Assembly: GCA_029942545.1 (NCBI GenBank)
Contig: GCA_029942545.1_4114.3
DNA from: a phage
Direction: 5' to 3' (one strand)
Length of the DNA: 32,788 bases
In this document: piece by piece, positions 9,318-32,390 of the stretch
Layout of the letters: every line of letters starts with the position of its first letter
Numbering within the stretch: the first letter of the stretch is position 1
Notes under the pieces: generated by a model
Databases searched by the model: none
Told to the model about the DNA's origin: nothing
The model's input: the letters and a program-made list of their open reading frames with translations, nothing else
Position numbers and translations under genes: made by a program

Positions 9318-9383
9318 AAATTCCTCCTTTATTCATTATACTATATTTAATACAAAAAGAAATGCCAGTACTTGAGTACTGGC
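9318..9383 (-). promoter_or_regulatory. terminator-promoter-RBS cassette
   Basis: GCCAGTACT-caag-AGTACTGGC hairpin plus T-run, TATAAT, AAGGAGG, ATG; near-identical to the other cassettes. Confidence 0.65.
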
Positions 9384-9389
9384 TTTATG

Positions 9390-10541: not shown

Positions 10542-10605
10542 AATTCCCTCCTTATTCATTATACTATATTTAATACAAATAAGAAAGCCAGTATCAAGTA
10601 CTGGC
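10542..10605 (-). promoter_or_regulatory. terminator-promoter-RBS cassette
   Basis: Same cassette; hairpin begins a few nt after the stop of 10613..11776. Confidence 0.65.
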
Positions 10606-10612
10606 ATTCTTT

Positions 10613-11776: not shown

Positions 11777-11841
11777 AATTCCCTCCTTTATTCATTATAC
11801 TATATTTAATACAAAAAGAAATGCCAGTATCAAGTACTGGC
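11777..11841 (-). promoter_or_regulatory. terminator-promoter-RBS cassette
   Basis: Same cassette (hairpin GCCAGTACTTGATACTGGC, TATAATGAATAAAGGAGGG). Confidence 0.65.
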
Positions 11842-11847
11842 TTTAAT

Positions 11848-12996: not shown

Positions 12997-13060
12997 ATTT
13001 CCCTCCTTATTCATTATACTATATTTAATACAAATAAGAATGCTAGTATCAAGTACTGGC
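12997..13060 (-). promoter_or_regulatory. terminator-promoter-RBS cassette
   Basis: Same cassette; hairpin variant GCCAGTACTTGATACTAGC. Confidence 0.6.
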
Positions 13061-13067
13061 CTATATT

Positions 13068-13805
13068 TTAGACTGAATTGTTAGGATAATATCTCCCACG
13101 TCCCCATATTATTCGCACAGCACCACCACCAGCAGCCGTATAAGAAAAATTATCCCATATACTACCACCACCACCATACATCTTACCAGCACCACCACTA
13201 CCAGCACCACCATTATATGAACCATCGTATCTACCGCCAATACCATTAGCACCTTGAACAATGATACCAGTACCACCACCCGTACCAATGAACGAGGTAT
13301 TATAGAATGCACCACCACCACCGCCGCCGCCAGCACCATTTTCACCAGTGATTGCATCTCCGTTACCACCTTTACCAGTGTAGCCACCAGCACCACCACC
13401 AATGACTGCACCACCACTTACACCAGCGTTGCCCCCATTACCACCACCATCATTAATAGCGTTAGCAGCTTTCCCACCTAGTCCACCAACCCTATATTCA
13501 CCAGTGAAGCTAACACATAGTTTTTCAGTTCCACGATATAAACCGTTTTCAACTGCTGTAGTAGTGTTGGGATGTGTAAGAGAAACACTTAAGTACTCAC
13601 CACTAGTAACCGGAATATTATTACGCCACGATAAGCCGCCGCCAGCACCACGTTGACCACCCGGCGAAATAACACATACTGATATTTCGGTAACGCCAGC
13701 AGGAACTGTAAATTGTGTTGTTCCTATTGTCGTGATTAATTGTTCACCATGTGGCTTATATTCAATTTCATTCCCGTACTTAATCATTCTTCCAAAAGGT
13801 AACAT
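13068..13805 (-). CDS. glycine-rich protein carrying the same MLPFGRMIKYGN leader
   Basis: ORF track; same N-terminal tag and upstream cassette as the RCC1 genes, but the body is FTVPAGVTEISVCVISPGG followed by long GGxGG low-complexity tracts; not RCC1. Confidence 0.8.
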   Translation of the reverse strand: MLPFGRMIKYGNEIEYKPHGEQLITTIGTTQFTVPAGVTEISVCVISPGGQRGAGGGLSWRNNIPVTSGEYLSVSLTHPNTTTAVENGLYRGTEKLCVSFTGEYRVGGLGGKAANAINDGGGNGGNAGVSGGAVIGGGAGGYTGKGGNGDAITGENGAGGGGGGGAFYNTSFIGTGGGTGIIVQGANGIGGRYDGSYNGGAGSGGAGKMYGGGGSIWDNFSYTAAGGGAVRIIWGRGRYYPNNSV

Positions 13806-13870
13806 AATTCCCTCCTTTATTCATTATAATATATTTAATACAAAAAGAAAAGCCAGTACTCAGTACTGGC
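13806..13870 (-). promoter_or_regulatory. terminator-promoter-RBS cassette
   Basis: Same cassette; perfect palindrome GCCAGTACT-g-AGTACTGGC. Confidence 0.65.
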
Positions 13871-13877
13871 TATTATA

Positions 13878-15065
13878 TTATAATTGTCGGGGTGTATCTA
13901 GTACATATCTAGTTGTACTAGGACCACCATCATCATAAGTTCCGGTTGAATATATATTTTTCATATCAGTTAGAAATGTACGATATGAACCTCTATATAT
14001 TTTTATTTTATCATACATAGAATATGTTATTTGTGTAGGCATTGGACATGCAGTAAACTTACCAACAGTTGCACTAGTACCAATACCCAATGAACCAGCA
14101 TAACTACTGGCATTTAAACCAGTTGCATATACACCAGTACTCGTAATTAGTATACTAGATTGTGGTGGGTATCCAGTATGAATTGAATACAAAGTACCGG
14201 GTGGTAACGTAGTACTGTTATTTCCTAAAACTCCATTAACAGAGCTAGATGTAGTGTTATTTCCCCATGCCCCATTATTAGCTAACCCACCGACAAGGAA
14301 CTGACGTGCTCCTGTATTTGGATTTTCAACTAAAGCACTTACTGCACCAGTTGAGCATCCTGTGTATTGTAACGTTTTTGTGTATGTTGTATTTGGTTGA
14401 TATAAAGTATATTCATTATATGAAGTCCATGTAGTCGCGGAACTTATACCGGATGTAACACCACCAATATATAAATTATTTTGTTTATCAAACAACAATA
14501 CACAGTTATTTGTTGACTGTATTTGTGCAATATCAACATTAGGTGTGACCGCTTTTACAAATGAACCATCGGTTATTTCATAAGTAGTTCCTGTACCATC
14601 TGCGAATTGTCTAGCACTGTTCCACCCTGTACTCCATATTGTATTATTATCCATTAACACAGTAAACCACGTAGTACCTCCATACATCTGTTTAATTGAA
14701 GTACTTGAACTTTGTGTGTACAAATTTTGAATATATTGGTTATAACTTAAAAACGTAGTAGTACTAGTTGATAAACCAATATGACTACCATATCCACAGT
14801 AATAATAATTTGAGTCATTGTCTTTTACTAATAAAGTTCCTTGTGTAAGCCAGCAATCGTTAACGTTTTCTCTAATTAATGTCCATGATTTTAATGCAGT
14901 GTTGTTTCCTCTACCGAATTTCCCAAAACTATTATTCCCACGTGCATATAGTTGACCATCCGTATACAGAACCACAACATCTAAATCAGTTGGGATTATT
15001 TTCTTAATTTGAAGTGGTACTGGGGCAATATTCCCATAATTCATCATTCTTGCAAAAGGTAACAT
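13878..15065 (-). CDS. RCC1-like beta-propeller repeat protein with MLPFARMMNYGNIAP leader
   Basis: ORF track; Gly/Ser/Thr/Asn-rich blades. Confidence 0.8.
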   Translation of the reverse strand: MLPFARMMNYGNIAPVPLQIKKIIPTDLDVVVLYTDGQLYARGNNSFGKFGRGNNTALKSWTLIRENVNDCWLTQGTLLVKDNDSNYYYCGYGSHIGLSTSTTTFLSYNQYIQNLYTQSSSTSIKQMYGGTTWFTVLMDNNTIWSTGWNSARQFADGTGTTYEITDGSFVKAVTPNVDIAQIQSTNNCVLLFDKQNNLYIGGVTSGISSATTWTSYNEYTLYQPNTTYTKTLQYTGCSTGAVSALVENPNTGARQFLVGGLANNGAWGNNTTSSSVNGVLGNNSTTLPPGTLYSIHTGYPPQSSILITSTGVYATGLNASSYAGSLGIGTSATVGKFTACPMPTQITYSMYDKIKIYRGSYRTFLTDMKNIYSTGTYDDGGPSTTRYVLDTPRQL

Positions 15066-15130
15066 AAATTCCTCCTTTATTCATTATACTATATTTAATA
15101 CAAATAAGAAAGCCAGTACAGAGTACTGGC
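15066..15130 (-). promoter_or_regulatory. terminator-promoter-RBS cassette
   Basis: Same cassette; hairpin GCCAGTACTCTGTACTGGC. Confidence 0.65.
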
Positions 15131-15136
15131 ATTAAA

Positions 15137-16285
15137 TCATTGTATAAATGACATATCAACTTCTGTATAACTAAGAATGTTTTGTCCAGCAATTCCCCCC
15201 ATTACTACCATAGCATACCCACAATAATATAATTGCTCAGTGTCCGTAAGTATAAGTGAACCAGATGGAGTGCGTACCAAATTACACGAACTATTAAACG
15301 AAGTATACGAAGGAGTATATGAGTACTGATTAATATTATTACCAACACCTAATTGACCAAATCCATTCGACCCAGATGCGTATAGAACTTCATCACCTTT
15401 AGCTATATGTGATGCCATGTTACTAACACACGTATATAGAGTATAAACTCCTGAACTCAATAATGTCGGAGTTTTGTATTGTATATCGGTAGATGAAGAA
15501 GTACCACCTGTGCCAAATTCGTTCCCGTATTGTGCACCGAACTGTTTACCACAAGCGTACAAATTATTATCCGATTTAATAAAAAATGTACTCTGATAAC
15601 TTACATCAAAATCTATAACATCTGAAGCAATCATCGTCACCCCAGTAATAGAAGTTTGATTACCTGTACCTAACTGATAGTAATAGTTAAAACCACAACC
15701 CCATAAAGTATTATCTTCTTTTAGGTATATGTTACCAACTGCCTTTTTAACCGAAGTTATAGTATCTACCCTTTTGAATGTGTTAAAAGAATTAATGTTT
15801 GTACCATCACCAAATGATGATAGGTTCGAGTTATTGTTAACTCCACAACAATACAACGTACCATCGTTTGTTATCAAATTCACCTTCATATCATTAAAAC
15901 TACTCATGTATTTTATATCAGAAACATTAATACCACCTGATGTTATCCACGTAGTACAGTCCGTCCACAAAGTTTTTGTATCAGTTACACCAGTGAATGC
16001 CTTCGTGTTACCAGTGATAAAAACTTTTCCAGTACCTTTCTCTTCATACATTTGACAACTACTACTGTTATCTTCCAATAGAACTCGTTTAACATTCTCT
16101 GCACAAAGAATAAATTTACTCGATGCTACACCTGTACCAGTACCCCAATTCGTCGCAGAAGATGCATACAACTTATTAGTATAAGTATCATGGAGATACA
16201 TAGAATCACTTGAATATATTTTAAAACGCCTATCCTTACCAGGGGCAATATTCCCATAATTCATCATTCTTGCAAAAGGTAACAT
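15137..16285 (-). CDS. RCC1-like beta-propeller repeat protein with MLPFARMMNYGNIAP leader
   Basis: ORF track; motif SGSNGFGQLGVGNN; long stretches near-identical to 11848..12996. Confidence 0.85.
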   Translation of the reverse strand: MLPFARMMNYGNIAPGKDRRFKIYSSDSMYLHDTYTNKLYASSATNWGTGTGVASSKFILCAENVKRVLLEDNSSSCQMYEEKGTGKVFITGNTKAFTGVTDTKTLWTDCTTWITSGGINVSDIKYMSSFNDMKVNLITNDGTLYCCGVNNNSNLSSFGDGTNINSFNTFKRVDTITSVKKAVGNIYLKEDNTLWGCGFNYYYQLGTGNQTSITGVTMIASDVIDFDVSYQSTFFIKSDNNLYACGKQFGAQYGNEFGTGGTSSSTDIQYKTPTLLSSGVYTLYTCVSNMASHIAKGDEVLYASGSNGFGQLGVGNNINQYSYTPSYTSFNSSCNLVRTPSGSLILTDTEQLYYCGYAMVVMGGIAGQNILSYTEVDMSFIQ

Positions 16286-16350
16286 ATTTCCCTCCTTTAT
16301 TCATTATACTATATTTAATACAAATAAGAAAGCCAGTACAGTGTACTGGC
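16286..16350 (-). promoter_or_regulatory. terminator-promoter-RBS cassette
   Basis: Same cassette; hairpin GCCAGTACACTGTACTGGC. Confidence 0.65.
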
Positions 16351-16356
16351 ATTATA

Positions 16357-17496
16357 TTATTTCCACGGTAGAAGTGAATCAGGAACCCTTGTTGGTACAG
16401 TAGTTGAAGACATTCCAGTAAGATTGGGTACACCACATGTGTATAAATTATTATATTCGTCAACTAACATCGTATAAGAATAGCTCTTACAAAAACTACT
16501 AAGATTACTACCTTCTAATGCAGTAAGATCCATTTCAGCGAATGATGTTATATACATATCAGTTGTACCAATACCACATTGACCATTTGAATTAAGGCCA
16601 CATGAAAATAACTTATTATTATTATTAATTATACAGGATGGTCCGGTAAGGTTTGTCCCAAGCTCACCCACCAACTCCACTTCTCCTTGGAATGATAAAT
16701 TTGGAATTAATGTACTCATTGGGGCTACTGACCTATTTCCTGTACCTGCTTGTCCATAGTCGTTAATAGATGCAACTTTAACATTACCATCATTAAGAAA
16801 TATATAAGAAGTTTCATTTGTATTGACTGCTTTAATTGCATTACTAATCGAAGTATCTTGTGTAAATGTGAGCAAGTTTTGTGTCGTCGTTCCTGATACA
16901 AACGTTCTACCTGCATACCAATATGAACCATCATTTAGTACTAATCCAGTACTATATATTGCACAACCAGCACTGATAACATTTTCTATTGTACTATAGG
17001 TGAATCGTGAAACGCTTGAAGTTGATCCATTCCCAAAAACACCACCAGTACCAGCACCACAGTAGAACCACTTTCCATTTTTTAAAAATACACGCATACA
17101 CGAAGATATCACAACACTATCAATATCATCTGCACTGACACCGAAATCAGTAAAGTTCTGTGTTATATCAACCCAAACGCCGTTAGTGTTTGAAGATAGT
17201 ATTGGAATAACAGTACGTCTACCAGTGTACCAAATAGTACCATCTTTCTTTATAGCAATTGTTCCTTGTACCCCACCCCAATATCGTGTAACATTTGAGT
17301 TGACAAGAGTCCATTCAGTTGAAGAGTCCAATGAACCATTACCACTTTGTCCATATGCTGAAGAACCAAACCAATATAGATTGCCATTTGTGTGTAAATA
17401 AAATTTGGCATCAGCAGAACATTGTAACCTGTTTTTAGGTAGAATCAGTTCAGGTGCGATATTCCCGTACTTAACCATTCTTGCAAAAGGTAACAT
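16357..17496 (-). CDS. RCC1-like beta-propeller repeat protein with MLPFARMVKYGNIAP leader
   Basis: ORF track; motifs SSAYGQSGNGS, GLNSNGQCGIGTT. Confidence 0.85.
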   Translation of the reverse strand: MLPFARMVKYGNIAPELILPKNRLQCSADAKFYLHTNGNLYWFGSSAYGQSGNGSLDSSTEWTLVNSNVTRYWGGVQGTIAIKKDGTIWYTGRRTVIPILSSNTNGVWVDITQNFTDFGVSADDIDSVVISSCMRVFLKNGKWFYCGAGTGGVFGNGSTSSVSRFTYSTIENVISAGCAIYSTGLVLNDGSYWYAGRTFVSGTTTQNLLTFTQDTSISNAIKAVNTNETSYIFLNDGNVKVASINDYGQAGTGNRSVAPMSTLIPNLSFQGEVELVGELGTNLTGPSCIINNNNKLFSCGLNSNGQCGIGTTDMYITSFAEMDLTALEGSNLSSFCKSYSYTMLVDEYNNLYTCGVPNLTGMSSTTVPTRVPDSLLPWK

Positions 17497-17561
17497 ATTT
17501 CCCTCCTTTATTCATTATACTATATTTAATACAAATAAGAAAGCCAGTACTCTGTACTGGC
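17497..17561 (-). promoter_or_regulatory. terminator-promoter-RBS cassette
   Basis: Same cassette; hairpin GCCAGTACAGAGTACTGGC. Confidence 0.65.
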
Positions 17562-17567
17562 ATTATG

Positions 17568-18677
17568 TTATTTTGGTAAATCAATTTTAGTAAAGACTGC
17601 AACATCCTCGATTGCACCTGGAATGGCGTAATACGATCCAGTACTATACACATCTCCATTTTTGGTTAATATCGATGTCAAACCATCACTAAAAAGAACA
17701 TCCCTAATCTCACTAACTTCAACGGGTAATTGTAAATTGGTAGCACTATATATAGCACCAGTTTGAGAATTGTTTAATCCCAAACCACGGTTCGCCCCAA
17801 CACCCTTCTGATATGTACTAGTAATTACCATTTGTGTAGCAGTATTTAAGGCAGGTGAATTCGTCATAAACAACGGAGAACTATTAGGCAAAGTACTTAC
17901 AGGAACGGCACGGAATGTAGTCGTGCCTGAACTAAGAAAGTTTGGAGTTTGACCACATACGAAATATGATGTACCATTATAGTAATTTAATGCATTACCA
18001 CCAATGGCTGCATCGATTACACCAGAACTACGCAATCCCCAAGTGTTAATTTGTGTTTGGTTCCCCGTACCATGCTGCCCACTACTATTCCATCCAGAAC
18101 TATATAGCTTATTATCTAATGTAAGATACATACTATCATTCGCATTGGTCATTACTTTACGAACGTTCGTAGCACATTGAGTTAATGTGTAAATTGATGA
18201 GGAACCAATACCCAAAGAACCACGATATCCATTATCTCCTGCACCATAGAGTACTGAATTAGTGCTAAGTACAAATATTAAACCATTTGTACATACAATA
18301 TTAGCAATTTCACTTACTGGTATAGCATTGGTAAACCAATTAGTTCTTTCAACTAATACAGTACTGTAAGAAGTAGTTGTAGAAGATGAGAACCAGTACG
18401 TTTGACCTGATGTCCATATCGTATTATCATTTTTAATAATAACAAGTGTACGATCACCCACGAAAAAATTAGAAACATCTGCACTTACTAATGTCCACGA
18501 AGACACCGTGTTGGTATTACCATTTCCAGATTCACCACCTTGATTTCTACCTATGTAATATAAATCATGTGAATCAGTCAATAAGAATTGGCCTTGGGTA
18601 GAAGCACCAACTTTAATTATTTTTTTAGGACCAGGGACAATATTTCCATACCTAATCATTCTTCCAAAAGGTAACAT
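17568..18677 (-). CDS. RCC1-like repeat protein with MLPFGRMIRYGNIVP leader
   Basis: ORF track 17568..18698, start moved to MLPF ATG; GGAGGG SD overlaps stop of upstream gene (coupled); motif GWNSSGQHGTGNQT. Confidence 0.8.
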   Translation of the reverse strand: MLPFGRMIRYGNIVPGPKKIIKVGASTQGQFLLTDSHDLYYIGRNQGGESGNGNTNTVSSWTLVSADVSNFFVGDRTLVIIKNDNTIWTSGQTYWFSSSTTTSYSTVLVERTNWFTNAIPVSEIANIVCTNGLIFVLSTNSVLYGAGDNGYRGSLGIGSSSIYTLTQCATNVRKVMTNANDSMYLTLDNKLYSSGWNSSGQHGTGNQTQINTWGLRSSGVIDAAIGGNALNYYNGTSYFVCGQTPNFLSSGTTTFRAVPVSTLPNSSPLFMTNSPALNTATQMVITSTYQKGVGANRGLGLNNSQTGAIYSATNLQLPVEVSEIRDVLFSDGLTSILTKNGDVYSTGSYYAIPGAIEDVAVFTKIDLPK

Positions 18678-18685
18678 ATTCCCTC

Positions 18686-19888
18686 CTATTGTTGCCATAA
18701 CTGCGTTGGCATTAATGTTAGTGTAGTAATACTATAAGTACCATTAGGTAATCTACCACCATTTCCATTCCAGCCACCACATGCATATAATTTATAATCT
18801 TTAGTAATTATTATGGTTCTGCTCCAATCTTTAGATGCCATAAGAACATTGTCATAACCACCACTTATTGCACTAAGATTAAAAATATTCCAAGTTCTAA
18901 CTAATGTATTAGTTCCATTACCTTCTTGACCATATGAGTTAGCACCACTACTTCTAACATATGGTGCGTATTGTGCCATAGGTGCACCAATTGATGCATT
19001 TCCCATATTACTTGGACAAATAAAAGTACTGTACTTACTTACATCAACCGTGACCGATGTGTTCCTAATTGGTGTTAGCTGATTTACCGATGTAGTCGTA
19101 CCATTACCAGCTTGTCCAGTACTGTTAACCCCGCTATAATATACAGACCCACCAGTAGTAAACCACCAAGTAACATCGTATGTAGTACTAATATGTTCTA
19201 CATTACTAATCACGAATTTGTTCAAATATACAACAGAACTACCACCACATCCACTTTCACCAAAGTTATCCTTACCACAAAACCATGCATCTTTATTTGA
19301 TTTGATATAGTGCGTTCCTTGTAATGAACATGCCATATGTGTAACTTCACCCATATTAGTCATAACTGTGAGTGTAGGGATGGAATTTTTATTACCAGAG
19401 CCACATTCACCATTAGTATTTCTTCCACACGCAATTACTCTACCATCGGTTAATAATATTCTAGTACTTTCACCTATATATACACTCTTGATCATATTAG
19501 CCATAACACCTATTTTATTAAATGCAACAGTAACATCAGTCCATGTTGTCAAATAACCATTAACAGGTGTTGCATCTCCATAATCAGAAAATGCAGCCAC
19601 AGACCCAGTGTAGTATATTTTATTATCCAAATCAATCATCAATGAACCTTGAACACCAAGCCAAAAGGCTGCACAGTTCCTTGCAAGTACTGTAAATGAC
19701 GAAACTGCTGCTGAATTCCCAAGACCAAATTGGTAAAAGTTATTACTACCATAACCATATAAAGTATTAGTTGGGTTATGGAGATACATACAGTTTGTAT
19801 AATGTTGTTGTAAAACATCTGAGAACTCTACAGGTTCTGGACCTGGTGCAATATTTGCGTACTTAACCATTCTTCCAAAAGGTAACAT
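18686..19888 (-). CDS. RCC1-like repeat protein with MLPFGRMVKYANIAP leader (first gene of array)
   Basis: ORF track 18686..19906, start moved to MLPF ATG; motifs CGRNTNGECGSGN, SGVNSTGQAGNGTT. Confidence 0.8.
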   Translation of the reverse strand: MLPFGRMVKYANIAPGPEPVEFSDVLQQHYTNCMYLHNPTNTLYGYGSNNFYQFGLGNSAAVSSFTVLARNCAAFWLGVQGSLMIDLDNKIYYTGSVAAFSDYGDATPVNGYLTTWTDVTVAFNKIGVMANMIKSVYIGESTRILLTDGRVIACGRNTNGECGSGNKNSIPTLTVMTNMGEVTHMACSLQGTHYIKSNKDAWFCGKDNFGESGCGGSSVVYLNKFVISNVEHISTTYDVTWWFTTGGSVYYSGVNSTGQAGNGTTTSVNQLTPIRNTSVTVDVSKYSTFICPSNMGNASIGAPMAQYAPYVRSSGANSYGQEGNGTNTLVRTWNIFNLSAISGGYDNVLMASKDWSRTIIITKDYKLYACGGWNGNGGRLPNGTYSITTLTLMPTQLWQQ

Positions 19889-19936
19889 ATTTCCCTCCTT
19901 ATTCATTATATCATATTTACCCCATAAAGAAAACCC
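19889..19936 (-). promoter_or_regulatory. promoter/RBS of first array gene (variant, no hairpin)
   Basis: Minus strand GATATAATGAATAAGGAGGGAAAT then ATG; shares a divergent intergenic region with the plus-strand promoter at 19937. Confidence 0.5.
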
Positions 19937-19990: not shown

Positions 19991-20218
19991 ATGACAAATA
20001 CTCTTAAGTACTACCTCAATACTCTAAATGAACTAGAGTACGGGGAATTTCTCTCGGATAGTTCGTGGCTAATTGAGCTAAAAAATTATAATAGTCCAGG
20101 ATGCACCCTTATGATGAACAATGCAATTGATACCCTCATTGTGAGTATTTTACACAGCAACATCTGCGGGGATAGCAATAAACAATTATCAAAAATCTTA
20201 GTACTGCTATCTATATGA
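19991..20218 (+). CDS. small protein, ~60-aa paralog family member
   Basis: ORF track; AAGGAG SD; family features (N-terminal YY, central C-rich motif, hydrophobic C-terminus). Confidence 0.7.
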   Translation: MTNTLKYYLNTLNELEYGEFLSDSSWLIELKNYNSPGCTLMMNNAIDTLIVSILHSNICGDSNKQLSKILVLLSI

Positions 20219-20418
20219 ACATTGAACAGTACTACATCGATGCACTACCAACAAAAGGTCTACGAGAAAGCCTACTGTATACACAAAATACTTTTATACA
20301 CTACAAACGTTGTCCTAAACTCCTGAACTCGTACAGGAGTAATATCATAAGAAATGCTTTACAAGGGGCAGAAAGTATGCAATACTATTATATCCTTGCC
20401 CTTTTAATCGAGTACTAA
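20215..20418 (+). CDS. small protein, paralog family member
   Basis: ORF track; 4-nt overlap with upstream gene; motifs MNIEQYYID, ends LALLIEY. Confidence 0.7.
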   Translation: MNIEQYYIDALPTKGLRESLLYTQNTFIHYKRCPKLLNSYRSNIIRNALQGAESMQYYYILALLIEY

Positions 20419-20419
20419 T

Positions 20420-20629
20420 ATGAATACTGAACATAAAGAATTCTACACCAAATACCTTAGCAACGAAGAACAATTGTTTCTAAGGAGTGTATCACCTGTA
20501 AGTACCAATACTCACTTCGGTAGAGATTGCTTTAATAATTGTATACGTAGTACTCTAGAAGCAATCGAATGCAATAACAAAAATATTATGTACTCAGGTT
20601 TAATAGGACTAATCTACTTCTATGAATAA
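20420..20629 (+). CDS. small protein, paralog family member
   Basis: ORF track; starts MNTEHKEFYTKYL; central FNNCIRS. Confidence 0.7.
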   Translation: MNTEHKEFYTKYLSNEEQLFLRSVSPVSTNTHFGRDCFNNCIRSTLEAIECNNKNIMYSGLIGLIYFYE

Positions 20630-20816
20630 TCATAAAGATTTCTATGGTAGTAAACTACACAAGCAAGACCAGCTATCATTCTCTTTAGCACCACCTATGA
20701 GAAAGGATAATCTATATTACAATTACGATTTCAGGATGGCGACACGTTATGCAATAGAACATCAGTTCCCTGAAACTAAGTACCGCTCTATCCTGAACCT
20801 CATCTTTAAGTTCTAA
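20622..20816 (+). CDS. small protein, paralog family member
   Basis: ORF track; starts MNNHKDFY; 8-nt overlap with upstream gene. Confidence 0.65.
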   Translation: MNNHKDFYGSKLHKQDQLSFSLAPPMRKDNLYYNYDFRMATRYAIEHQFPETKYRSILNLIFKF

Positions 20817-20826
20817 AAGGTGCTAT

Positions 20827-21036
20827 ATGAAAACTACAAACATTCATCAGTACTACATAGATATTCTCCCTAAAGATGTACAGTTCATACTTAAACAAGA
20901 ATTCAGTACTTTAAAAAAACTAAAAAGAACCGCACCTTCAGCAATCATCCAGCACCAAAAAAATGTCGTGCGTAATATACTACAAGGTACACCAGGGACC
21001 GAGTACTTTAATATAGTAAGGCTAATTACATTATAA
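20827..21036 (+). CDS. small protein, paralog family member
   Basis: ORF track; starts MKTTNIHQYYIDILP; resembles 20215..20418. Confidence 0.7.
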   Translation: MKTTNIHQYYIDILPKDVQFILKQEFSTLKKLKRTAPSAIIQHQKNVVRNILQGTPGTEYFNIVRLITL

Positions 21037-21221
21037 TGAATCATATAAGCTACTACTACCAACAACTATCCGACAGAGACAAGTACAGTCACAACTCCCA
21101 TGTGTGGTACTACAAACGCGGCAGTATAAGAGACAAACAACATTACTTCTGTATTTCTATTAAAGAAGCACTGACAACTAAGTACACGTACCGAGCAGTA
21201 ATTAAACTTATTGAAATGTAA
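21036..21221 (+). CDS. small protein, paralog family member
   Basis: ORF track; ends KYTYRAVIKLIEM, matching the next gene's KYTYREVMKLIAI. Confidence 0.7.
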   Translation: MNHISYYYQQLSDRDKYSHNSHVWYYKRGSIRDKQHYFCISIKEALTTKYTYRAVIKLIEM

Positions 21222-21229
21222 GGAAGAAA

Positions 21230-21412
21230 ATGAACATAGAATTCTATTTAACTAAACTACAACACGCCGAAAGATTCAACTTCAATAAGTTCAATATTTT
21301 CTACAATTGCGGGAACAAAAAAGATAAACACACCTTCCTATATGTCGTCACAAGAGATGCACAAAACGAAAAGTACACATACAGAGAAGTAATGAAACTA
21401 ATCGCTATTTAA
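21230..21412 (+). CDS. small protein, paralog family member
   Basis: ORF track; close paralog of 21036..21221. Confidence 0.7.
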   Translation: MNIEFYLTKLQHAERFNFNKFNIFYNCGNKKDKHTFLYVVTRDAQNEKYTYREVMKLIAI

Positions 21413-21420
21413 GGAATACT

Positions 21421-21600
21421 ATGCAACAATTCTATAGAGAACGTATAACCATAAAAGACCGTTTCATGTACGACACCTTCGTGAAGTACTACAAACTAGG
21501 AACAAAAAGTACTAAAAATATTAATCTCAATAGCTGCATTTATGCTGTACTAACACAAGATAATCCCTACAGGGAAATCCTCGCCCTGGCATCTATATAA
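21421..21600 (+). CDS. small protein (59 aa), probable paralog family member
   Basis: Not in ORF track (below 60 aa); hand-called ATG about 21421 after AAGGA SD, stop TAA about 21598-21600; fills the only gap in the array; starts MQQFYRERI. Confidence 0.5.
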   Translation: MQQFYRERITIKDRFMYDTFVKYYKLGTKSTKNINLNSCIYAVLTQDNPYREILALASI

Positions 21601-21610
21601 AGGAAACCAA

Positions 21611-22282
21611 ATGAAACTTAATGCACACAGCAAACAATACCTTAAGCACTTTAAGTACCTCAATAGTATTCAGGCAGAATCAGTTACATCTGCATATACG
21701 TATCACCCGAATGTACTAAAGAAACGAAATAAAAAGGAAAAATCCAGTACAAATGGAGTTAACGTATCAAAGAACCTTGAATTGTACATGAAGAAAAATA
21801 ATATAGCTGTTCATTATATGAATATCTATAATACTGATTTAAAAGTATTGAGTACTAATACGAGCACAAAGGTACTAAAGAACGCATCCTTCATCATCAA
21901 TATGCAGTTGGATAATACCCCGTGCACTTTAATGCTATACTTCGGGAATACATACTTCTTCGGGAATTGTAACACCTCCCACGATGTCAATACAGCACAA
22001 TTCCAAATGGGTGGCATATACTCTACTGATGCAGAAAAAGTACACGAGAATATGCACTTCTGGCAAGCACAACGTACAGAAGAAACTGATACAGTACTAC
22101 AATTCCTCAAAGAACTAGAACACAAAGAACTACAGGAAGAAGAACTATTCATGTACAGTACTGTAATCGATAATCCAGTACTCTATAAAAACGCGTACAA
22201 TCTGACAAAACATGTACAGGAACTTATCAGTACTAATAAGAAAATGCATCACCTCATTACGTATATTACAAACTATGTATAA
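21611..22282 (+). CDS. hypothetical protein (223 aa) embedded in the small-ORF array
   Basis: ORF track; AAGGAAACC SD-like; no family motifs. Confidence 0.7.
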   Translation: MKLNAHSKQYLKHFKYLNSIQAESVTSAYTYHPNVLKKRNKKEKSSTNGVNVSKNLELYMKKNNIAVHYMNIYNTDLKVLSTNTSTKVLKNASFIINMQLDNTPCTLMLYFGNTYFFGNCNTSHDVNTAQFQMGGIYSTDAEKVHENMHFWQAQRTEETDTVLQFLKELEHKELQEEELFMYSTVIDNPVLYKNAYNLTKHVQELISTNKKMHHLITYITNYV

Positions 22283-22457
22283 AGAATACTACAGGGAACA
22301 TCTCCCAATGCATCTCCAGCACCATATACCAACAGAACCAATAGGAATAAAAGATCACGCAAAGATAATGTTTCAACAATGTACTAAGTACACGCTCATA
22401 TACGATGATAATCCATATATGCTGTACTACGTAGTAATGTTAACATTCAGGTACTAA
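22275..22457 (+). CDS. small protein, paralog family member
   Basis: ORF track 22212..22457; start moved to internal ATG (MYKEYYREHLP) that matches family N-termini and overlaps the upstream stop. Confidence 0.7.
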   Translation: MYKEYYREHLPMHLQHHIPTEPIGIKDHAKIMFQQCTKYTLIYDDNPYMLYYVVMLTFRY

Positions 22458-22458
22458 C

Positions 22459-22644
22459 ATGTATAAAGAATACTACATAGAGAAACTCCCAATGTATCTC
22501 CAACACCTTGTACCAACAGAACCATTGGGTATAGAAAAAAACTACGAAAAAGACTACTTCATTCAGTGCACTAAATCCTCGATATATATTGAAGACTATA
22601 ATCGAGTACTGTATCACATCCTTTTACTAATATATAGGTACTAA
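22459..22644 (+). CDS. small protein, paralog family member
   Basis: ORF track; MYKEYYIEKLP ... LLLIYRY; 1-nt intergenic gap. Confidence 0.75.
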   Translation: MYKEYYIEKLPMYLQHLVPTEPLGIEKNYEKDYFIQCTKSSIYIEDYNRVLYHILLLIYRY

Positions 22645-22645
22645 T

Positions 22646-22828
22646 ATGCACAAAGAATACTACACACAATTTCTCCCCAGCATTTTTGAACACTACGCCA
22701 GATACAAAGTCCCCCTGGATAACGATTTGGCAGTACTGGGATTCAATAACTGCATAGAACGAAGTATAGAAAATAGTAGTAGTTATGACCAGCTATATAA
22801 CACTATCCTACTTATATTCAGGTACTAA
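22646..22828 (+). CDS. small protein, paralog family member
   Basis: ORF track; MHKEYYTQFLP ... ILLIFRY. Confidence 0.75.
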   Translation: MHKEYYTQFLPSIFEHYARYKVPLDNDLAVLGFNNCIERSIENSSSYDQLYNTILLIFRY

Positions 22829-22829
22829 C

Positions 22830-23018
22830 ATGCATAAAGAATACTACACAAAATATTTCCCAATGTACCTCAGAACTAATCTATTAGATAAACCTCGCGG
22901 TATCAATGCACAAAATGATAAAGTGTATTTTACTATGTGCACTAAAGCATGTATACTAGATTTTGACAGCTATCATCGAGTACTGTATCATACCCTGTAC
23001 CTAGCTTTCGTATTCTAA
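22830..23018 (+). CDS. small protein, paralog family member
   Basis: ORF track 22785..23018; start moved to ATG 22830 (MHKEYYTKYFP) matching family. Confidence 0.7.
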   Translation: MHKEYYTKYFPMYLRTNLLDKPRGINAQNDKVYFTMCTKACILDFDSYHRVLYHTLYLAFVF

Positions 23019-23027
23019 GAGAACAAT

Positions 23028-23213
23028 ATGCATAAAGAATTCTACTTAAGCCATCTGGATCTAAACTCCCAAATGCTTATACCACTAATCCCAATAGATA
23101 TCAAGGATAAGAAAAATACCGAACAATTCATTTACCATACACAGTGTGCGATCACCCCAAATTACATTCCATATGAATTGTACTACATTCTCGCCCTAAT
23201 ATATAGGTACTAA
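23028..23213 (+). CDS. small protein, paralog family member
   Basis: ORF track; MHKEFYLSHL ... LALIYRY. Confidence 0.75.
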   Translation: MHKEFYLSHLDLNSQMLIPLIPIDIKDKKNTEQFIYHTQCAITPNYIPYELYYILALIYRY

Positions 23214-23214
23214 T

Positions 23215-23400
23215 ATGCATAGAGAATACTACACACAATTTGTTAAAGGGAACTACAAACATGCCGTACCCAGAACCCCTTTAAATTCTCATGACCCAAG
23301 TACTATATTCTTGTTTAATGACGCAATACGTACAGTACTCAATACTAAAGATGAAGATGTGCAGTACGTATTCTTACTATTACTTATATACAGACACTAA
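23215..23400 (+). CDS. small protein, paralog family member
   Basis: ORF track; MHREYYTQFV ... LLLIYRH. Confidence 0.75.
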   Translation: MHREYYTQFVKGNYKHAVPRTPLNSHDPSTIFLFNDAIRTVLNTKDEDVQYVFLLLLIYRH

Positions 23401-23405
23401 CTAAT

Positions 23406-23588
23406 ATGAATAAAGAACATAAAGAATTCTATATAAGAAAACTAACATTCGTCCCCGTAAGAATATATAAAGAATGCGACCCAAGATTATACCTATGGCA
23501 CTTCAATGAGTGCATAAAAGATTCTATATACCCTAAGAACTATAAAGAACAATTGTGCTCAGTACTAACACTAGTACTATCATATTAA
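23406..23588 (+). CDS. small protein, paralog family member
   Basis: ORF track; MNKEHKEFYIRKL; central FNECIKDSIY. Confidence 0.7.
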   Translation: MNKEHKEFYIRKLTFVPVRIYKECDPRLYLWHFNECIKDSIYPKNYKEQLCSVLTLVLSY

Positions 23589-23603
23589 TTAATAGAGAAT
23601 ACT

Positions 23604-23795
23604 ATGTATAAAAACTTCTATATAAGTAAACTAAAAGAAAATGAACAAGTATGGATTAGATCTATAATTCCACTGGCATTTAATAGATATGCATTTAACA
23701 GATGTACCGAGATTGCTATAGACCCTTATAATATTAAAGAGAATGTACAGTATAATCAGTACTACTATATCTTAATGCTTATATATAGGAAGTAA
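23604..23795 (+). CDS. small protein, paralog family member (last of array)
   Basis: ORF track; MYKNFYISKL ... ILMLIYRK. Confidence 0.7.
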   Translation: MYKNFYISKLKENEQVWIRSIIPLAFNRYAFNRCTEIAIDPYNIKENVQYNQYYYILMLIYRK

Positions 23796-23909
23796 TTAAA
23801 CACAAGTAGACAGGGGAAGCTCCTAGTGAACAACCTTTATGTACAGGCGAATTGTTAAAATTCAGCCTGGACAAATGCGATCACTAGGATTCTCCCCAGG
23901 CTAAACCCC

Positions 23910-24000
23910 GTAATCATAGGTAGTCATAAGTAATCATATATAAACATTTAAGTAATCATTTATAATCACTGTAGTGATCAGTAGTGATCAGTAGTGAGTA
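23910..24000. repeat. direct repeats: GTAATCA-type heptamers and three tandem 10-bp units
   Basis: GTAATCAT occurs at least 3 times with a related TAATCAC, followed by AGTAGTGATC x3 in tandem (about 23970-24000). Confidence 0.6.
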
Positions 24001-24129
24001 CTAGAGTACAGGAATGTTCACGTTTAATCAAGAACGTAGCAGTACTGATATGTCACTAAGTAGGCAGAGGAAGTCTGCCGTACTTTTTAGTTTCCAAGCT
24101 CCTTTTCCATTTTTCAAATTACATCAAAT

Positions 24130-24164
24130 GTAATCAAAAGTAATCACGCAATGATTAGTACTGA
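24130..24164. repeat. GTAATCA repeats including an inverted pair
   Basis: GTAATCAAAAGTAATCACGCAATGATTAG: two direct copies plus inverted TAATCA/TGATTA around CGCAA. Confidence 0.55.
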
Positions 24165-24423
24165 ATTATTACTTTCACCTTAATTACAATTACCCTTTTA
24201 CCCGTCGGGGTAAAATTCCATTACCCCTTGAGGCTCCAGCAAAAAGTTGGTTAGTACTCCATCCTAAATCTCGATCCTAAAAATTTTGGAGTACCTATGA
24301 AATAAAAGTTGGATCTTCGAAAGTTGAAATTTACGTTGGGACGTTTATGATTTGTGGGATATAATGATGTTTGTAGACGGGTAGTTCTCAAGAATATCAG
24401 TACTGAATAATGAAAGAAAGTTA

Positions 24424-24451
24424 TTGACATTATGATTCAGTACTGTATAAT
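24424..24451 (+). promoter_or_regulatory. strong sigma70-like promoter in ORF-free region
   Basis: TTGACA (24424-24429), 16 nt containing CAGTACTG, TATAAT (24446-24451); no ORF of meaningful length downstream. Confidence 0.55.
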
Positions 24452-24457
24452 GTTCTA

Positions 24458-24656
24458 CATAGAGAGATGAGTTGCTGCCAACAATTCATTTACTCTACCT
24501 CCTGTCGTGAGACAGTACAGAAAAGATAGTTCCTCCTGTGGTGGTACATCTTTTTGAACCTCATATGAAAATCGTAATAACAGTACTGATATTAACAGAA
24601 TGGTGTCAGTACTGATTTTAATCTAAAGCATTATGCCACCAGCTTGTGCTGGTGGA
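24458..24656 (+). ncRNA. candidate small non-coding RNA (about 200 nt)
   Basis: Downstream of promoter 24424-24451; longest ORF about 20 aa; two CCTCCTGT(C/G)GTG copies (anti-SD-like CCUCCU); ends at 8-bp hairpin CCACCAGC-ttgt-GCTGGTGG (24636-24655) without a clear U-tract. Confidence 0.25.
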
Positions 24657-24796
24657 TTCCCTCTAACAGTATTCAGTACTACATGATAGTCTTCATCCTC
24701 CTAGGGTAACATAGTGAGGGCTATGATGGCAGTACTGAATACTCCTTTCACAAGATAGATCTATGGTATAGTACTGACGGATTTTGGGCGTAGTTA

Positions 24797-24968
24797 CCCT
24801 GGATGGATTTTGGACGTAGATATGTCTAGCCCTCCAGAAGTCTGGAAGTAAAGATGGCTATCCATCTAGACGGCTAGACGGCTAGATTTCTGGATGGCTG
24901 GATGGCTAGACGTTTGGACGGCTAAACGGCTAGATGGTTACACGTCTGGAAGTATAGACGGCTAAATC
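24797..24968. repeat. iteron-like array of short direct repeats
   Basis: Repeated 7-11 bp words: ACGGCTA(G/A)A x5, TGGATGG x3, TTGGACG x2, GTCTGGAAGTA x2, mostly in one orientation at roughly 9-11 bp spacing. Confidence 0.6.
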
Positions 24969-25130
24969 AAAATTTTATTTTGTTTTTTCCAATAGTTCCC
25001 CTACCGCGTGGGGATAGTTTCCCCGCAGTATCTGGAGTTAGATTTTTCTGAATCTGGAATCATTATCTTATAAACTGGGGGCAATGTCAACGGCCTGGAC
25101 GGATATTTTTAAAAATTTTTTCAGTACTGA

Positions 25131-25182
25131 ATTTTGGGCGTAACTATGCACCCGGTGGGCTTGAGTCTTTCTCGACTTGATG
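25131..25182 (+). repeat. ~50-nt repeated element, copy A
   Basis: ATTTTGGGCGTAACTATGCACCCGGTGGGCTTGAGTCTTTCTCGACTTGATG; shares ATTTTGGGCGTAA, GCACCC and CTTTCTCG..T.ATG blocks with copies at 25347 and 28955. Confidence 0.5.
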
Positions 25183-25245
25183 AAAATATTATAGCAGTAC
25201 TGAAAAAATAAAGCAATACCCTAAACGCAAAAAGTTTTAATTAAT

Positions 25246-25274
25246 TTGCTTGCCATCCTGGGGCGTACTATGAT
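25246..25274 (+). promoter_or_regulatory. possible promoter (TTGCTT -35-like, TATGAT -10)
   Basis: TTGCTT, 17 nt, TATGAT, upstream of repeated element copy B; weak match. Confidence 0.25.
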
Positions 25275-25346
25275 ACTATTATTCAGTACTGAGAAAGTGC
25301 TATGACCTGCTAAGGTGCGGGAGTGTATCCTTTTTAAATTATATGA

Positions 25347-25399
25347 ATTTTGGGCGTAATTCCGCACCCCCCAGGGGTATCCGCTTTCTCGCGTCTATG
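25347..25399 (+). repeat. ~50-nt repeated element, copy B
   Basis: ATTTTGGGCGTAATTCCGCACCCCCCAGGGGTATCCGCTTTCTCGCGTCTATG. Confidence 0.5.
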
Positions 25400-25657
25400 T
25401 AGTAATTATACGCTTTTTCGGTGCTGAGTCAATAGCTAAAAACAAAATAATTGAAAATAATTTAACGCGTTTAAACGGCCCGTAAAGCCCTGGTTAGCTG
25501 GTGGCGGTGCAAATGTATAGCTTAGGTGTATTAATGCGTTAGAAAGCGGCTGAGGCCGTTTTATGGGGTGTATAGTAGTGATTTGGTTGATTCAGTACTG
25601 AAAGATAGTTCCCCTATATAGAAAGAAAACTATTTTAAAAGTATTTGTAGAAAGTAC

Positions 25658-25720
25658 TTGCAAAGTATTGGGAAAGGTGTAGAATGTTTTACATCGAGAC
25701 GGGGGATACGCTCCCGACTC
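25658..25720 (+). promoter_or_regulatory. early-type promoter plus downstream stem-loop (PeSL-like)
   Basis: AGTACTTGCAA, 16 nt, TAGAAT, GTTTTACATC, then GGGGGATACGCTCCC hairpin; gene 25743 follows. Confidence 0.55.
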
Positions 25721-25742
25721 ACTTTTAAAAGAGATTAAAACG

Positions 25743-26105
25743 ATGGCGACTCAAATCAATACTATCATGCTTAACCTGGTTTCTTTCCGTGAAGAGATGA
25801 AAGATCTTCCCGCTGAGACTGTACGGATTCACATTGCAGCTTATCGGGAATTGATTGCAATGTTACCGCTTAAGCGTGAACAGTATGCAGCTACTGCAAT
25901 GCTGGACGCAATGATACATAAGATGATCCAGACTGATTTAACGATGGCTTATCAGTACATGGGCGAAATGTTTGCAGTGTATAGCAAGCCAGTACCAGGA
26001 ATGGAAAGTACAGAAGTATTGCACGGCTTAAACTTAAAACAAGATGCATGGGATAATATGCCTCGTTTCCTGGTATGGGCTGATAGTGGAAAGATTTACG
26101 AATAA
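25743..26105 (+). CDS. hypothetical protein (120 aa)
   Basis: ORF track; downstream of promoter/stem-loop; GC-richer codon choice. Confidence 0.7.
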   Translation: MATQINTIMLNLVSFREEMKDLPAETVRIHIAAYRELIAMLPLKREQYAATAMLDAMIHKMIQTDLTMAYQYMGEMFAVYSKPVPGMESTEVLHGLNLKQDAWDNMPRFLVWADSGKIYE

Positions 26106-26119
26106 GTTTAATAAAGTAC

Positions 26120-26178
26120 TTGCAAACTAAGTTTAAAAGCGTATAATGTTTTACATCAGGTGGGGAATAGTTCCCCAC
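26120..26178 (+). promoter_or_regulatory. early-type promoter plus stem-loop (PeSL-like)
   Basis: TTGCAA (26120-26125), 16 nt, TATAAT (26142-26147), GTTTTACATC, hairpin GTGGGGAATAGTTCCCCAC. Confidence 0.6.
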
Positions 26179-26787: not shown

Positions 26788-26908
26788 AAGTACTTGACCG
26801 TTATCCGGCTTAGTGAGATAATACTTACAAGCCGGACACAAGGCGATAGCCCATAGGGTGCGGGAGTGTATCTATAGGAAAGTACTAAAAACTATTTTCA
26901 AAAAGTAC

Positions 26909-28592: not shown

Positions 28593-28652
28593 TTGCAATT
28601 AGTTTCCAGTACTGTATAATAGTTTACATCAAGGGGAGAAATGGTTCTCCCC
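28593..28652 (+). promoter_or_regulatory. early-type promoter plus stem-loop (PeSL-like)
   Basis: TTGCAA (28593-28598), 16 nt containing CAGTACTG, TATAAT (28615-28620), hairpin GGGGAGAAATGGTTCTCCCC. Confidence 0.6.
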
Positions 28653-30208: not shown

Positions 30209-30361
30209 TGTCTATAGTATTCCAGTCCACTAGCACCGCCTAGAATCGATTCTAACGCATTAAACTGATTATCTGATGCATCGCCCTAGCTGGTGGCGTT
30301 AAGGTCGTTAGAATGCGATTGAGAGCGTTTAAAGTATTTTGCAAAAAGTAATAAAAAGTAC

Positions 30362-31135: not shown

Positions 31136-31164
31136 TTGACATAGTTTGATAGTACTGGCATAAT
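31136..31164 (+). promoter_or_regulatory. sigma70-like promoter
   Basis: TTGACA (31136-31141), 17 nt containing AGTACTGG, CATAAT (31159-31164). Confidence 0.5.
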
Positions 31165-32322: not shown

Positions 32323-32370
32323 TTTTTAGTACTGTATAATTGTTTACATCGAGAGCGGGAATAGTTCCCG
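32313..32370 (+). promoter_or_regulatory. early-type promoter plus stem-loop (PeSL-like)
   Basis: TTGCAA (32313-32318), 16 nt containing TAGTACTG, TATAAT (32335-32340), hairpin GCGGGAATAGTTCCCGC identical to the one at 28043. Confidence 0.6.
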
Positions 32371-32390
32371 CCTATAACGAGGAAAGAATA

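Follow-up and report, generated by a model that had tools for sequence, protein, structure and literature searches.

Why should a phage keep a consensus promoter near the end of its DNA where no gene follows it? The question is raised by positions 24424-24656 of a stretch of phage DNA of 32,788 nt (NCBI GenBank assembly GCA_029942545.1, contig GCA_029942545.1_4114.3; the whole stretch is called the window below). A preliminary description, made from the letters of the window alone, had noted here a strong promoter, about 200 nt of putative transcript without a meaningful open reading frame (ORF), two CCUCCU motifs complementary to Shine-Dalgarno (SD) sequences and an 8-bp hairpin, and had proposed either a small RNA (sRNA) that masks ribosome-binding sites or a structured leader. 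The window comes from an Asteriusvirus jumbo phage of the PBECO4/121Q type (92-95% identity to coliphages such as PBECO4, 121Q and G17), and the element lies within a gene-free stretch of 1.95 kb (23796-25742). Our analysis suggests, with a probability that we put at roughly 0.55, that the element combines the leftmost early promoter and its leader, orphaned of a gene, which would produce a non-coding RNA, with a pair of Chi sites that would act at the DNA level to protect the genome end. It is best read as the outermost module of the terminal repeat, not as a stand-alone gene for an anti-SD sRNA.

The location of the element with respect to the genome ends can be read from database records. 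The first bases of the vB_Ec-M-J and fEgEco12 records correspond to the window from 24059 onward; a direct terminal repeat (DTR) is annotated at 1-21525 in the former, and in the latter its length has been determined as 20,993 bp by PhageTerm and restriction digests (PMC13070987). Since these records start there, position 24059 is the left physical end of the virion DNA, that is the first base of a DTR of ~21 kb, and window 1-24058 holds the right-hand end of the unique region, joined to it as in a concatemer or a circular assembly. In six records with determined termini the element falls at positions 322-672 (322-662 in the four besides vB_Ec-M-J and fEgEco12), and its promoter at 24424 is found 366 bp inside the left terminus, at the start of the DTR, reading inward. 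The first annotated gene of the DTR starts at 25743, and the repeat as a whole contains many small genes, each with a promoter of its own. When the first ten proteins of the DTR were searched against PHROG, all families recovered were of unknown function, and none was recognisable as an inhibitor of RecBCD.

Conservation and covariation were assessed in an alignment of twelve Asteriusviruses, using RNAalifold and explicit counting of pairs. The sigma-70 promoter TTGACA-N16-TATAAT (24424-24451, plus strand), which the preliminary description had called near-consensus, is present and matches the consensus in full (12/12), with the -35 hexamer TTGACA at 24424-24429, the -10 hexamer TATAAT at 24446-24451 and a spacer of 16 nt that holds the palindrome TCAGTACTG (24437-24445); a further palindrome, TCAGTACTGA (24397-24406), precedes the -35 hexamer by ~20 bp. 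Neither the two hexamers nor the AGTACTG motif of the spacer vary across the 12 relatives. Three promoters of the window reach 12/12 (24424, 27027 and 30597), all of them on the plus strand, in the DTR and with 16-nt spacers; the expectation from mononucleotide shuffles is 0.068, which amounts to a 44-fold excess, and at least three such promoters were obtained in 0/2000 shuffles.

The promoter at 24424 is the leftmost member of a family of early promoters in the DTR. Twelve plus-strand DTR promoters share the layout AAAAAGTAC-TTG(A/C)(C/A)A, spacer and TATAAT, in which the spacer often contains CAGTACTG and measures 16 nt in 11 cases (17 nt at 31136). The -10 hexamer is followed by the start region TTTACATC and by a G-rich 5' stem-loop (GGGGAGAA-nnn-UUCUCCCC), and an SD sequence with an ATG comes 20-150 nt after the -10 hexamer, ~30-50 nt in most. 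The promoter studied here agrees with the family in its -35 hexamer, spacer and -10 hexamer, in the start region (TATAAT-N5-ACAT; CTACATAG) and in the 5' stem-loop (H1, see below), and its arrangement ACATAGAGAG...CTCTACCTCCT parallels ACATAGAGAGGGGGAAATGGTTCTCCCTCCT of an ordinary early gene; unlike the twelve family members, however, it has neither an SD sequence nor a conserved ORF downstream. Because it is family-like in every part except the SD sequence and the gene, we interpret the unit as an orphan (gene-less) copy of the early promoter/leader cassette. Consensus promoters followed by ORF-less sequence also occur near the termini of two other clades, ~333 bp from the end in the Klebsiella phage fENko-Kae01 and ~271 bp in the Alcyoneusvirus Muenster.

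The predicted non-coding transcript extends over 24457-24622 on the plus strand, its start being placed at the A of ACATAG by analogy with the promoter family (TATAAT-N5-ACATC). The preliminary description was right that no meaningful ORF follows the promoter: the only candidates are a 20-aa frame starting with ATG (24467-24529) and a 25-aa frame starting with GTG (24538-24615), and no ORF is conserved in any of the aligned relatives. A small plus-strand protein encoded by the 20-aa frame was rejected, as this frame is destroyed in 5 of the 12 relatives, by loss of the ATG in JNE01, Turkey5 and EJP2 and by indels in G17 and CMSTMSU. We also considered a 19-aa minus-strand protein behind AGGAGG-N8-ATG, the reverse of the first CCTCCT, but both its SD sequence and its ATG are lost in JNE01 and Turkey5; on reading the sequence, the other CCTCC sites show no start codon on the minus strand.

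The structured leader offered as the second alternative in the preliminary description fared well in the folding and covariation analyses, which reveal hairpins with compensatory changes among the relatives. The RNA 24458-24662 (205 nt) has a predicted free energy of -65.9 kcal/mol (z = -6.0 against dinucleotide shuffles), and the consensus structure comprises 39 pairs, with 95.6% of cells paired. Eight pairs changed on both sides, compared with 2.7 +/- 1.2 in shuffles (0/500 reached this number) and 0-5 in slid controls, which supports a structured RNA; since the G-U pairs in H1 and H4 fit only the plus strand, the structure is specific to that strand. The 5'-terminal stem-loop H1 (24460-24497), with three pairs changed on both sides, is the counterpart of the G-rich 5' stem-loops of the early mRNAs, and its pairing is kept by three different stem sequences: that of the window, that of JNE01/Turkey5 and that of EJP2. 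H2 (24502-24515; CUGUC-GUGA-GACAG), a 5-bp hairpin with a GNRA loop, is the most conserved island of the RNA; it is invariant except for the closing pair, C-G replaced by A-U in JNE01 and Turkey5, and occurs as a single copy across >100 kb of Asteriusvirus DNA. In the long hairpin H3 (24520-24555) the apex is formed by the second CCUCCURUG (24532-24540) paired with GGUGG, and the pairs 77/116 and 85/110 covary. H4 (24581-24614) is a 14-bp hairpin made of two CAGTACTG palindromes 26 bp apart and followed by AUUUUAAU; its ninth pair is A-U, U-G or U-A depending on the relative, and counterparts with other inner stems exist in fENko-Kae01 and Muenster. The 5' domain as a whole is among the least conserved non-coding parts of the left end (57-59% identity to JNE01), and the non-coding region 24650-25550 is 84-100% identical among divergent Asteriusviruses, compared with 70-76% for the first DTR protein genes.

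No known RNA family was recognised in the searches made here. A search of the whole window against Rfam 15 gave no match at gathering thresholds and only chance-level matches at E<=5, tRNA and tmRNA scans found nothing, and a covariance model of H1-H3 retrieved only Asteriusvirus copies, with none in fENko-Kae01, Muenster or the first 9 kb of phage PA5oct. Exact-pattern scans of IMG/VR for H2 returned 21 contigs, 13 of them with the pattern in long open frames (compared with 80% of random positions), which is about what chance would give, and the idea of H2 as a widespread phage motif was abandoned; the few intergenic look-alikes reach E values of only ~0.03-0.08. A reading of H2 as a LexA box was likewise rejected, on account of its spacing and its unconserved flanks.

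Chi is a DNA signal that switches the host RecBCD enzyme from degradation to RecA loading. The letters of the 8-bp hairpin claimed in the preliminary description are all present, as CCACCAGC (24636-24643), ttgt and GCTGGTGG (24648-24655), but their interpretation as an RNA hairpin was a misreading: the arms are exact Chi octamers of E. coli in both orientations, and CCACCAGC-N4-GCTGGTGG is an inverted pair of Chi sites. A top-strand GCTGGTGG is active for RecBCD entering from the right (PMC12315714), and the octamer at 24648-24655 (plus strand) is therefore oriented for enzyme travelling leftwards. The octamer at 24636-24643 is a bottom-strand Chi located 578 bp from the left terminus and has the orientation for RecBCD entering there, which reaches the 3' side of the site first. 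Of 13 Asteriusvirus sequences examined, the window among them, 10 retain the intact pair. Its loop flips between TTGT and ACAA among close relatives, and in EJP2 the hairpin is lost and CCACCAGC is kept, a pattern that fits a DNA signal rather than an RNA loop.

The pair is part of a wider clustering, for which ~100 kb was examined per genome. The DTR of fEgEco12 (20,993 bp) holds 12 Chi sites, with a GCTGGTGG:CCACCAGC ratio of 10:2 (CCACCAGC at 578 and 6619) and none in the adjacent 29 kb, compared with a prediction from composition of ~0.3 per 50 kb; seven of the 12 are intergenic, with unrelated flanks. The DTR of fENko-Kae01 (19,736 bp), a phage of the Munch/fENko-Kae01 clade with an average nucleotide identity (ANI) of only ~29% to fEgEco12, holds 14 (12:2, CCACCAGC at 484 and 7013), with two in the adjacent 25 kb, and that of Muenster (20,030 bp) holds eight (7:1), with none in the adjacent 25 kb. 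Taken together, the three repeats contain 34 Chi sites in 61 kb, compared with 2 in 79 kb of adjacent DNA, with a strong bias to top-strand GCTGGTGG. The last top-strand GCTGGTGG is found ~0.4-1.4 kb from the right edge of the DTR, and since both ends carry the same repeat, its many top-strand sites serve the right end. For the left end a Chi of the opposite orientation is required close to the left edge, and this is supplied at 578 bp by the 5' arm CCACCAGC. The same type of inverted pair, CCCACCAGC-TTAA-GCTGGTGG, is present at 484-503 in fENko-Kae01, and hence two clades have a Chi site of this orientation next to the left end, at 578 bp and 484 bp.

Further Chi octamers of the window were recorded at 25497-25504, 30289-30296, 13126-13133 and 13384-13391. 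A second inverted pair exists in fEgEco12 (6619/6681), the first arm of which is mutated in the window (30227), and six more Chi sites are situated before the right repeat, inside the minus-strand RCC1-like genes described below.

No canonical terminator marks the 3' end of the transcript; those of the DTR consist of GC stems with T6 runs. In H4 only 4 of the 14 pairs are G-C, and the tail AUUUUAAU is weak and not conserved (AUAUUAAU in A4, JNE01 and EJP2); the hairpin of the Chi pair (H5) has no U-tract and is followed by AUUCCCUC. Both were rejected as terminators for being unlike the canonical ones of the phage, and neither provides the GC-rich stem with an immediate U-tract of an intrinsic terminator. 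The 'terminator' assigned by ARNOLD in the G17 record is this Chi-pair hairpin, an annotation that rests on the stem only and that the present analysis corrects. H4 may act as a weak terminator, as two palindromes for protein binding, or as both. The transcript may end behind H4, behind the Chi hairpin (24656) or at a point still further on, and the untranslated RNA is a plausible substrate for Rho.

These features can be combined into the following model. Host RNA polymerase would bind the consensus promoter at the entering left end and start at ~24457, and on DNA that is entering the cell this promoter may be the first to fire and might help polymerase to load. The product would be a non-coding leader RNA stabilised at its 5' end, with H1 followed by H2 with its GNRA loop and by H3. 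With no ribosome on the RNA and no canonical terminator, its ends would probably be heterogeneous, produced by H4 as a weak AGUACU hairpin, by the GC-rich one or by Rho. The Chi pair follows ~180 bp downstream of the predicted start, and its CCACCAGC arm would be the first correctly oriented Chi for RecBCD coming from the left end. If RecBCD responds to these sites during infection, Chi would switch the entering enzyme from nuclease to RecA loading, so that the end is spared, and would promote recombination between the repeats, giving circles or concatemers and recombination-primed replication; the top-strand GCTGGTGG sites of the DTR would do the same service for the right end.

Several observations weigh against this model. 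In A4 both octamers are gone but the site still forms a hairpin, though a weaker one, and the Chi of EJP2 has a hairpin of another kind next to it; the hairpin as such may matter as well. Muenster is without a Chi pair at the left end, and its first left-active Chi is at 6454. These phages encode a recombinase of their own (PMC11895373), and the ends may also be protected by proteins or by DNA modification, which would make Chi dispensable. H2 (UGUCGUGAGACA) and CCUCCURUG are invariant islands in an otherwise fast-evolving RNA, and in the first 45 kb of PA5oct the only top-strand CCTCCT, as CCTCCTATG, is found near the 5' end of the non-coding RNA ncRNA001 (8263-8498), which shares the 9-mer CCUCCUAUG with the invariant island of the RNA studied here. 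Together, the two islands and the PA5oct motif hint at a sequence-specific function of the RNA beyond that of a passive leader. Finally, the start site, the 3' end and the stability of the RNA are all predicted.

A trans-acting sRNA, the main idea of the preliminary description, would be a discrete transcript of ~165-200 nt in which CCUCCU(RUG) or another exposed segment pairs early in infection with SD regions or other targets. The two copies of CCTCCTGT(C/G)GTG that gave rise to the idea are indeed present, at 24498 and 24532, within the repeats CCTCCTGTCGTGAGACA (24498-24514) and CCTCCTGTGGTGGTACA (24532-24548), which are 82% identical, and a third CCTCCT of the window is at 24697. The structured, ORF-less and covarying RNA, the CCUCCURUG invariant amid diverged flanks and the motif in ncRNA001, itself detected by RNA-seq, all speak for an sRNA, and so does the rarity of top-strand GGAGG (1 site in the window), from which it follows that the early genes of the phage are for the most part without a full GGAGG. 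However, the accessible CCUCCU is the one that is not conserved: the first copy (24498-24503), in the single-stranded tail of H1 (probability of being unpaired 0.55-0.81), is replaced by UAUCAU in JNE01 and Turkey5, and the invariant second copy is mostly paired with GGUGG (0.19-0.43), so that a C-rich seed both conserved and accessible, as expected of an anti-SD sRNA, was not found among the relatives. CCUCCU also stands at the end of the 3' arm of hairpins in the 5' untranslated regions of ordinary early genes in this phage group (e.g. ACATAGAGAGGGGGAAATGGTTCTCCCTCCTAAATTAAGGAG..ATG in fEgEco12), to which the first copy is homologous, and the motif is therefore a feature of the leader family. 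The poor conservation of the 5' domain in comparison with the DNA further downstream, the failure of the covariance model to find anything in the two other clades or in PA5oct, and the lack of a canonical terminator or U-tail and of an Rfam match point the same way. The masking of ribosome-binding sites is thus not borne out, and a trans-acting role of the RNA is unlikely. Very improbable, in our view, is a variant in which a 'pre-early' non-coding RNA, the first to be made from the incoming DNA, mimics rRNA and, within minutes of infection, either affects translation in trans or serves as a decoy for a host defence directed at ribosomes. It is based on the anti-SD core of 16S rRNA (CCUCCU, here invariant as CCUCCURUG), shared with ncRNA001, and on a 13-nt copy of the apex of helix 93 of 23S rRNA, GUCGUGAGACAGU: the 13-mer GTCGTGAGACAGT (24504-24516, at the apex of H2) is identical to positions 2592-2604 of E. 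coli 23S rRNA, in the helix 93 region, a match equalled by 12 of 2000 shuffles of the RNA. A second shared segment, a 10-mer (24464-24473, 23S 2775-2784), is not conserved in the relatives. The 13-mer match was noticed post hoc and is absent from the PA5oct non-coding RNAs, and rRNA mimicry by H2 was kept as a lead only.

Other explanations turn on what lies downstream of the promoter or on what may once have been there. The transcript could activate or prime an origin, by an R-loop or by origin opening, at the iterons (24866-24964) and the AT-rich tract (~24960-24990) that lie ~400-500 bp downstream, resembling T4 oriE/oriF/oriG or ColE1 RNA II. The unit does lie in a 1.7-kb gene-free region together with these elements, a converging minus-strand promoter is present at 25090, the region 24650-25550 is better conserved than the first genes, other clades have different iterons at the same place, as would be expected for a co-evolving initiator, and these phages possess T4-like replication genes (PMC7247149). 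Yet the skew data, which are uninformative here, give no evidence of replication initiation, and the 8-bp period of the iterons is atypical for initiator binding; they could equally be terminase or partition sites, and conserved RNA hairpins would be superfluous in such a scheme, which we consider rather unlikely. Quite improbable is a neutral relic, an early gene that has decayed so that the promoter and leader survive and the coding part is gone. The start region, H1 and CCUCCU do parallel ordinary early leaders, the transcribed part evolves fast and the two copies of CCTCCTGT-GTG resemble the products of an internal duplication, but decay is hard to reconcile with a perfectly conserved promoter, with compensatory changes that maintain H1, H2 and H3, and with a consensus promoter and ORF-less sequence at the same place in three clades that share only ~29% ANI. 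We give the lowest credence to a promoter-proximal terminated leader that loads an antitermination complex for read-through of the repeat, like the lambda PR'-6S RNA-tR' unit with Q or the nut/put RNAs. A strong promoter ahead of ORF-less RNA of ~200 nt is also the layout of lambda 6S, H2 with its 5 bp and GNRA loop is similar to boxB, and a palindrome lies between the -35 and -10 hexamers, where lambda has its Q-binding element. A nut-like boxA/boxB reading was nevertheless dismissed: the hairpin is there, but no conserved boxA-like sequence is found 8-12 nt upstream of H2 among the relatives. There is also no convincing terminator to override, and the downstream genes have promoters of their own, with opposing promoters in between.

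The orphan early promoter and leader with its Chi pair, which we thus prefer, is surrounded by other unusual elements. Nearly all early mRNAs of the DTR are predicted to begin with ACAUC(A/G)AG and a G-rich/C-rich stem-loop GGGGAGAAuagUUCUCCCC before the SD sequence (e.g. 28633-28652, 26157-26175 and 32355-32373), with the C-rich arm sometimes ending in CCUCCU. ORF-less promoters of the same family exist at 25432, 29026 and ~25205 on the minus strand and at 26794 on the plus strand, giving gene-less units at 25432-25280, ~25245-25112 and 29026-28895 (minus) and at 26794-26900 (plus); several of them are thus on the minus strand, although the protein genes of the DTR are all on the plus strand. 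These units have in common an 'X-box' CCCAnnGGGUGC, and their ends are marked by a CAGTACTG palindrome with an A-run after it; the block 25184-25464 shows 71-76% identity to Muenster and fENko-Kae01. They are a possible small-RNA family.

The hexamer AGTACT, often in the form (T)TCAGTACTGA(A), is the top hexamer of the window, with 143 sites compared with ~11 expected (13-fold), among them those at 24397-24406, 24437-24446, 24581-24588, 24607-24614, 25122-25129, 25284-25291 and 25593-25600. It is placed just 5' of -35 hexamers (AAAGTACTTGCAA), in promoter spacers, before terminators (CAGTACTGAATCAC and a hairpin) and in terminator stems, and its density is 6-8 per kb in the DTRs of the three clades, compared with ~2.3-2.5 per kb outside. 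Such a distribution suggests a target of an unknown dimeric DNA-binding protein; a role of CAGTACTG in a novel type of promoter was rejected, as the sequence after the palindrome is not consistently -10-like. The iteron array itself (24866-24964, and 24776-24860) consists of ~12 tandem 8-bp units, CTAGACGG / GGCTAGAC, and behind it come the AT-rich tract and a TTTTTCCAATAG block that is conserved. In the two Klebsiella/Salmonella clades this position is taken by different iterons, GAGAATGATTCTCATT, which resemble the Fur box at ~15/19 positions. The array may serve as an origin, in packaging or in titration.

A terminator-like hairpin GGCAGAGGAAGTCTGCC with a T-run (24063-24079) starts 4 nt inside the repeat boundary at 24059 and would, in the right-hand copy of the repeat, end the upstream operon of small genes, and the motif CAGTACTGATATGTCACTAA directly precedes the cut position 24059. 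An inverted repeat AGTACTCCATCCTAAATCTCGATCCTAAAAATTTTGGAGTACC (24253-24295), at a distance of ~195 bp from the terminus, matches positions 86-128 of the distant Klebsiella phage fENko-Kae01 with 93% identity, far above the genome-wide similarity, and is a candidate terminase or end-recognition site. Just ahead of the boundary, ~18 tandem paralogous plus-strand genes of ~60 aa (MHKEYY...LIYRY; 19991-23795) are driven by a TTGACA promoter at ~19930. Twelve paralogous minus-strand genes of ~245-406 aa, mostly ~380-400 aa, occupy 5674-19906; they are annotated in fEgEco12 as RCC1-like 'chromosome condensation regulator', and each has a CCTCC(T) complement of the SD sequence and most have a terminator with the stem GCCAGTACT..AGTACTGGC.

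The Rak2-like jumbo phages (Asteriusvirus, Alcyoneusvirus and relatives) are under development for therapy, and the locus bears on the question of how a linear DNA of 350 kb survives entering the cell and sets its programme going. Within 600 bp of the physical end lie a perfect host promoter and a Chi pair, and in three clades the 20-kb terminal repeats are dense with oriented Chi sites that are almost lacking in the neighbouring DNA. This leads to a testable model in which the host RecBCD-Chi system is used for end protection and repeat recombination. The analysis also draws attention to a class of gene-less early transcription units in the repeat, which matches the abundant PA5oct non-coding RNAs seen by RNA-seq.

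The module has partial precedents. In T7 the strong host-polymerase promoters A1-A3 lie in the first several hundred bp, read inward and have an untranslated leader, and transcription from them pulls the genome in. The strong inward host-type promoter near the end and the untranslated leader are similar here, but the next gene is 1.3 kb away with a promoter of its own and opposing promoters in between, and both the polarity of entry and any role of transcription in it would be conjectural for this phage. The terminal redundancies of SPO1 and T5 are host-takeover modules with small early genes behind strong host-type promoters; the likeness is one of setting, a long terminal repeat packed with small early genes, and does not extend to the ORF-less unit, and Chi clustering is not known in either phage. 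RsaE/RoxS are C-rich anti-SD sRNAs with motifs that are conserved and exposed in loops or linkers and with a canonical terminator behind them. The RNA described here is likewise small and structured and has repeated C-rich SD-complementary motifs, but its exposed copy is not conserved, its conserved copy is paired and no canonical terminator follows.

The related Pseudomonas jumbo phage PA5oct offers another parallel: its DTR is highly transcribed early and yields two abundant ORF-less RNAs, ncRNA001 and ncRNA002 (Lood et al. 2020, PMC7318152). These are, like the RNA studied here, ORF-less, on the plus strand and in the DTR, and ncRNA001 carries CCUCCUAUG. They differ in that no homology to our RNA in sequence or structure was detectable beyond this 9-mer (the model was run on the first 9 kb, which include ncRNA001; ncRNA002, at 21951-22401, lay outside this search) and in that they were detected experimentally at 8 and 22 kb from the record end, unlike the predicted RNA at the terminus described here.

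For the Chi sites the nearest relatives are phages LLS and P1, in which terminally clustered Chi were described by Zheng, Casjens, Davidson, Amundsen and Smith in 2025 (PMC12315714); P1 needs RecA and RecBCD to recombine its terminal repeats (PMC12315714). We found no report of terminally clustered Chi in jumbo phages. In LLS and P1, as here, exact E. coli Chi octamers are over-represented near a genome end with a strong orientation bias. Unlike them, the phage studied here is a virulent jumbo myovirus of 350-375 kb with a recombinase of its own, its Chi sites are restricted to a direct repeat of 21 kb that stands at either end, so that both orientations are needed, and the left orientation is provided by an inverted Chi pair 0.5-0.6 kb from the terminus. 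The arrangement is thus a new variant of the LLS/P1 pattern.

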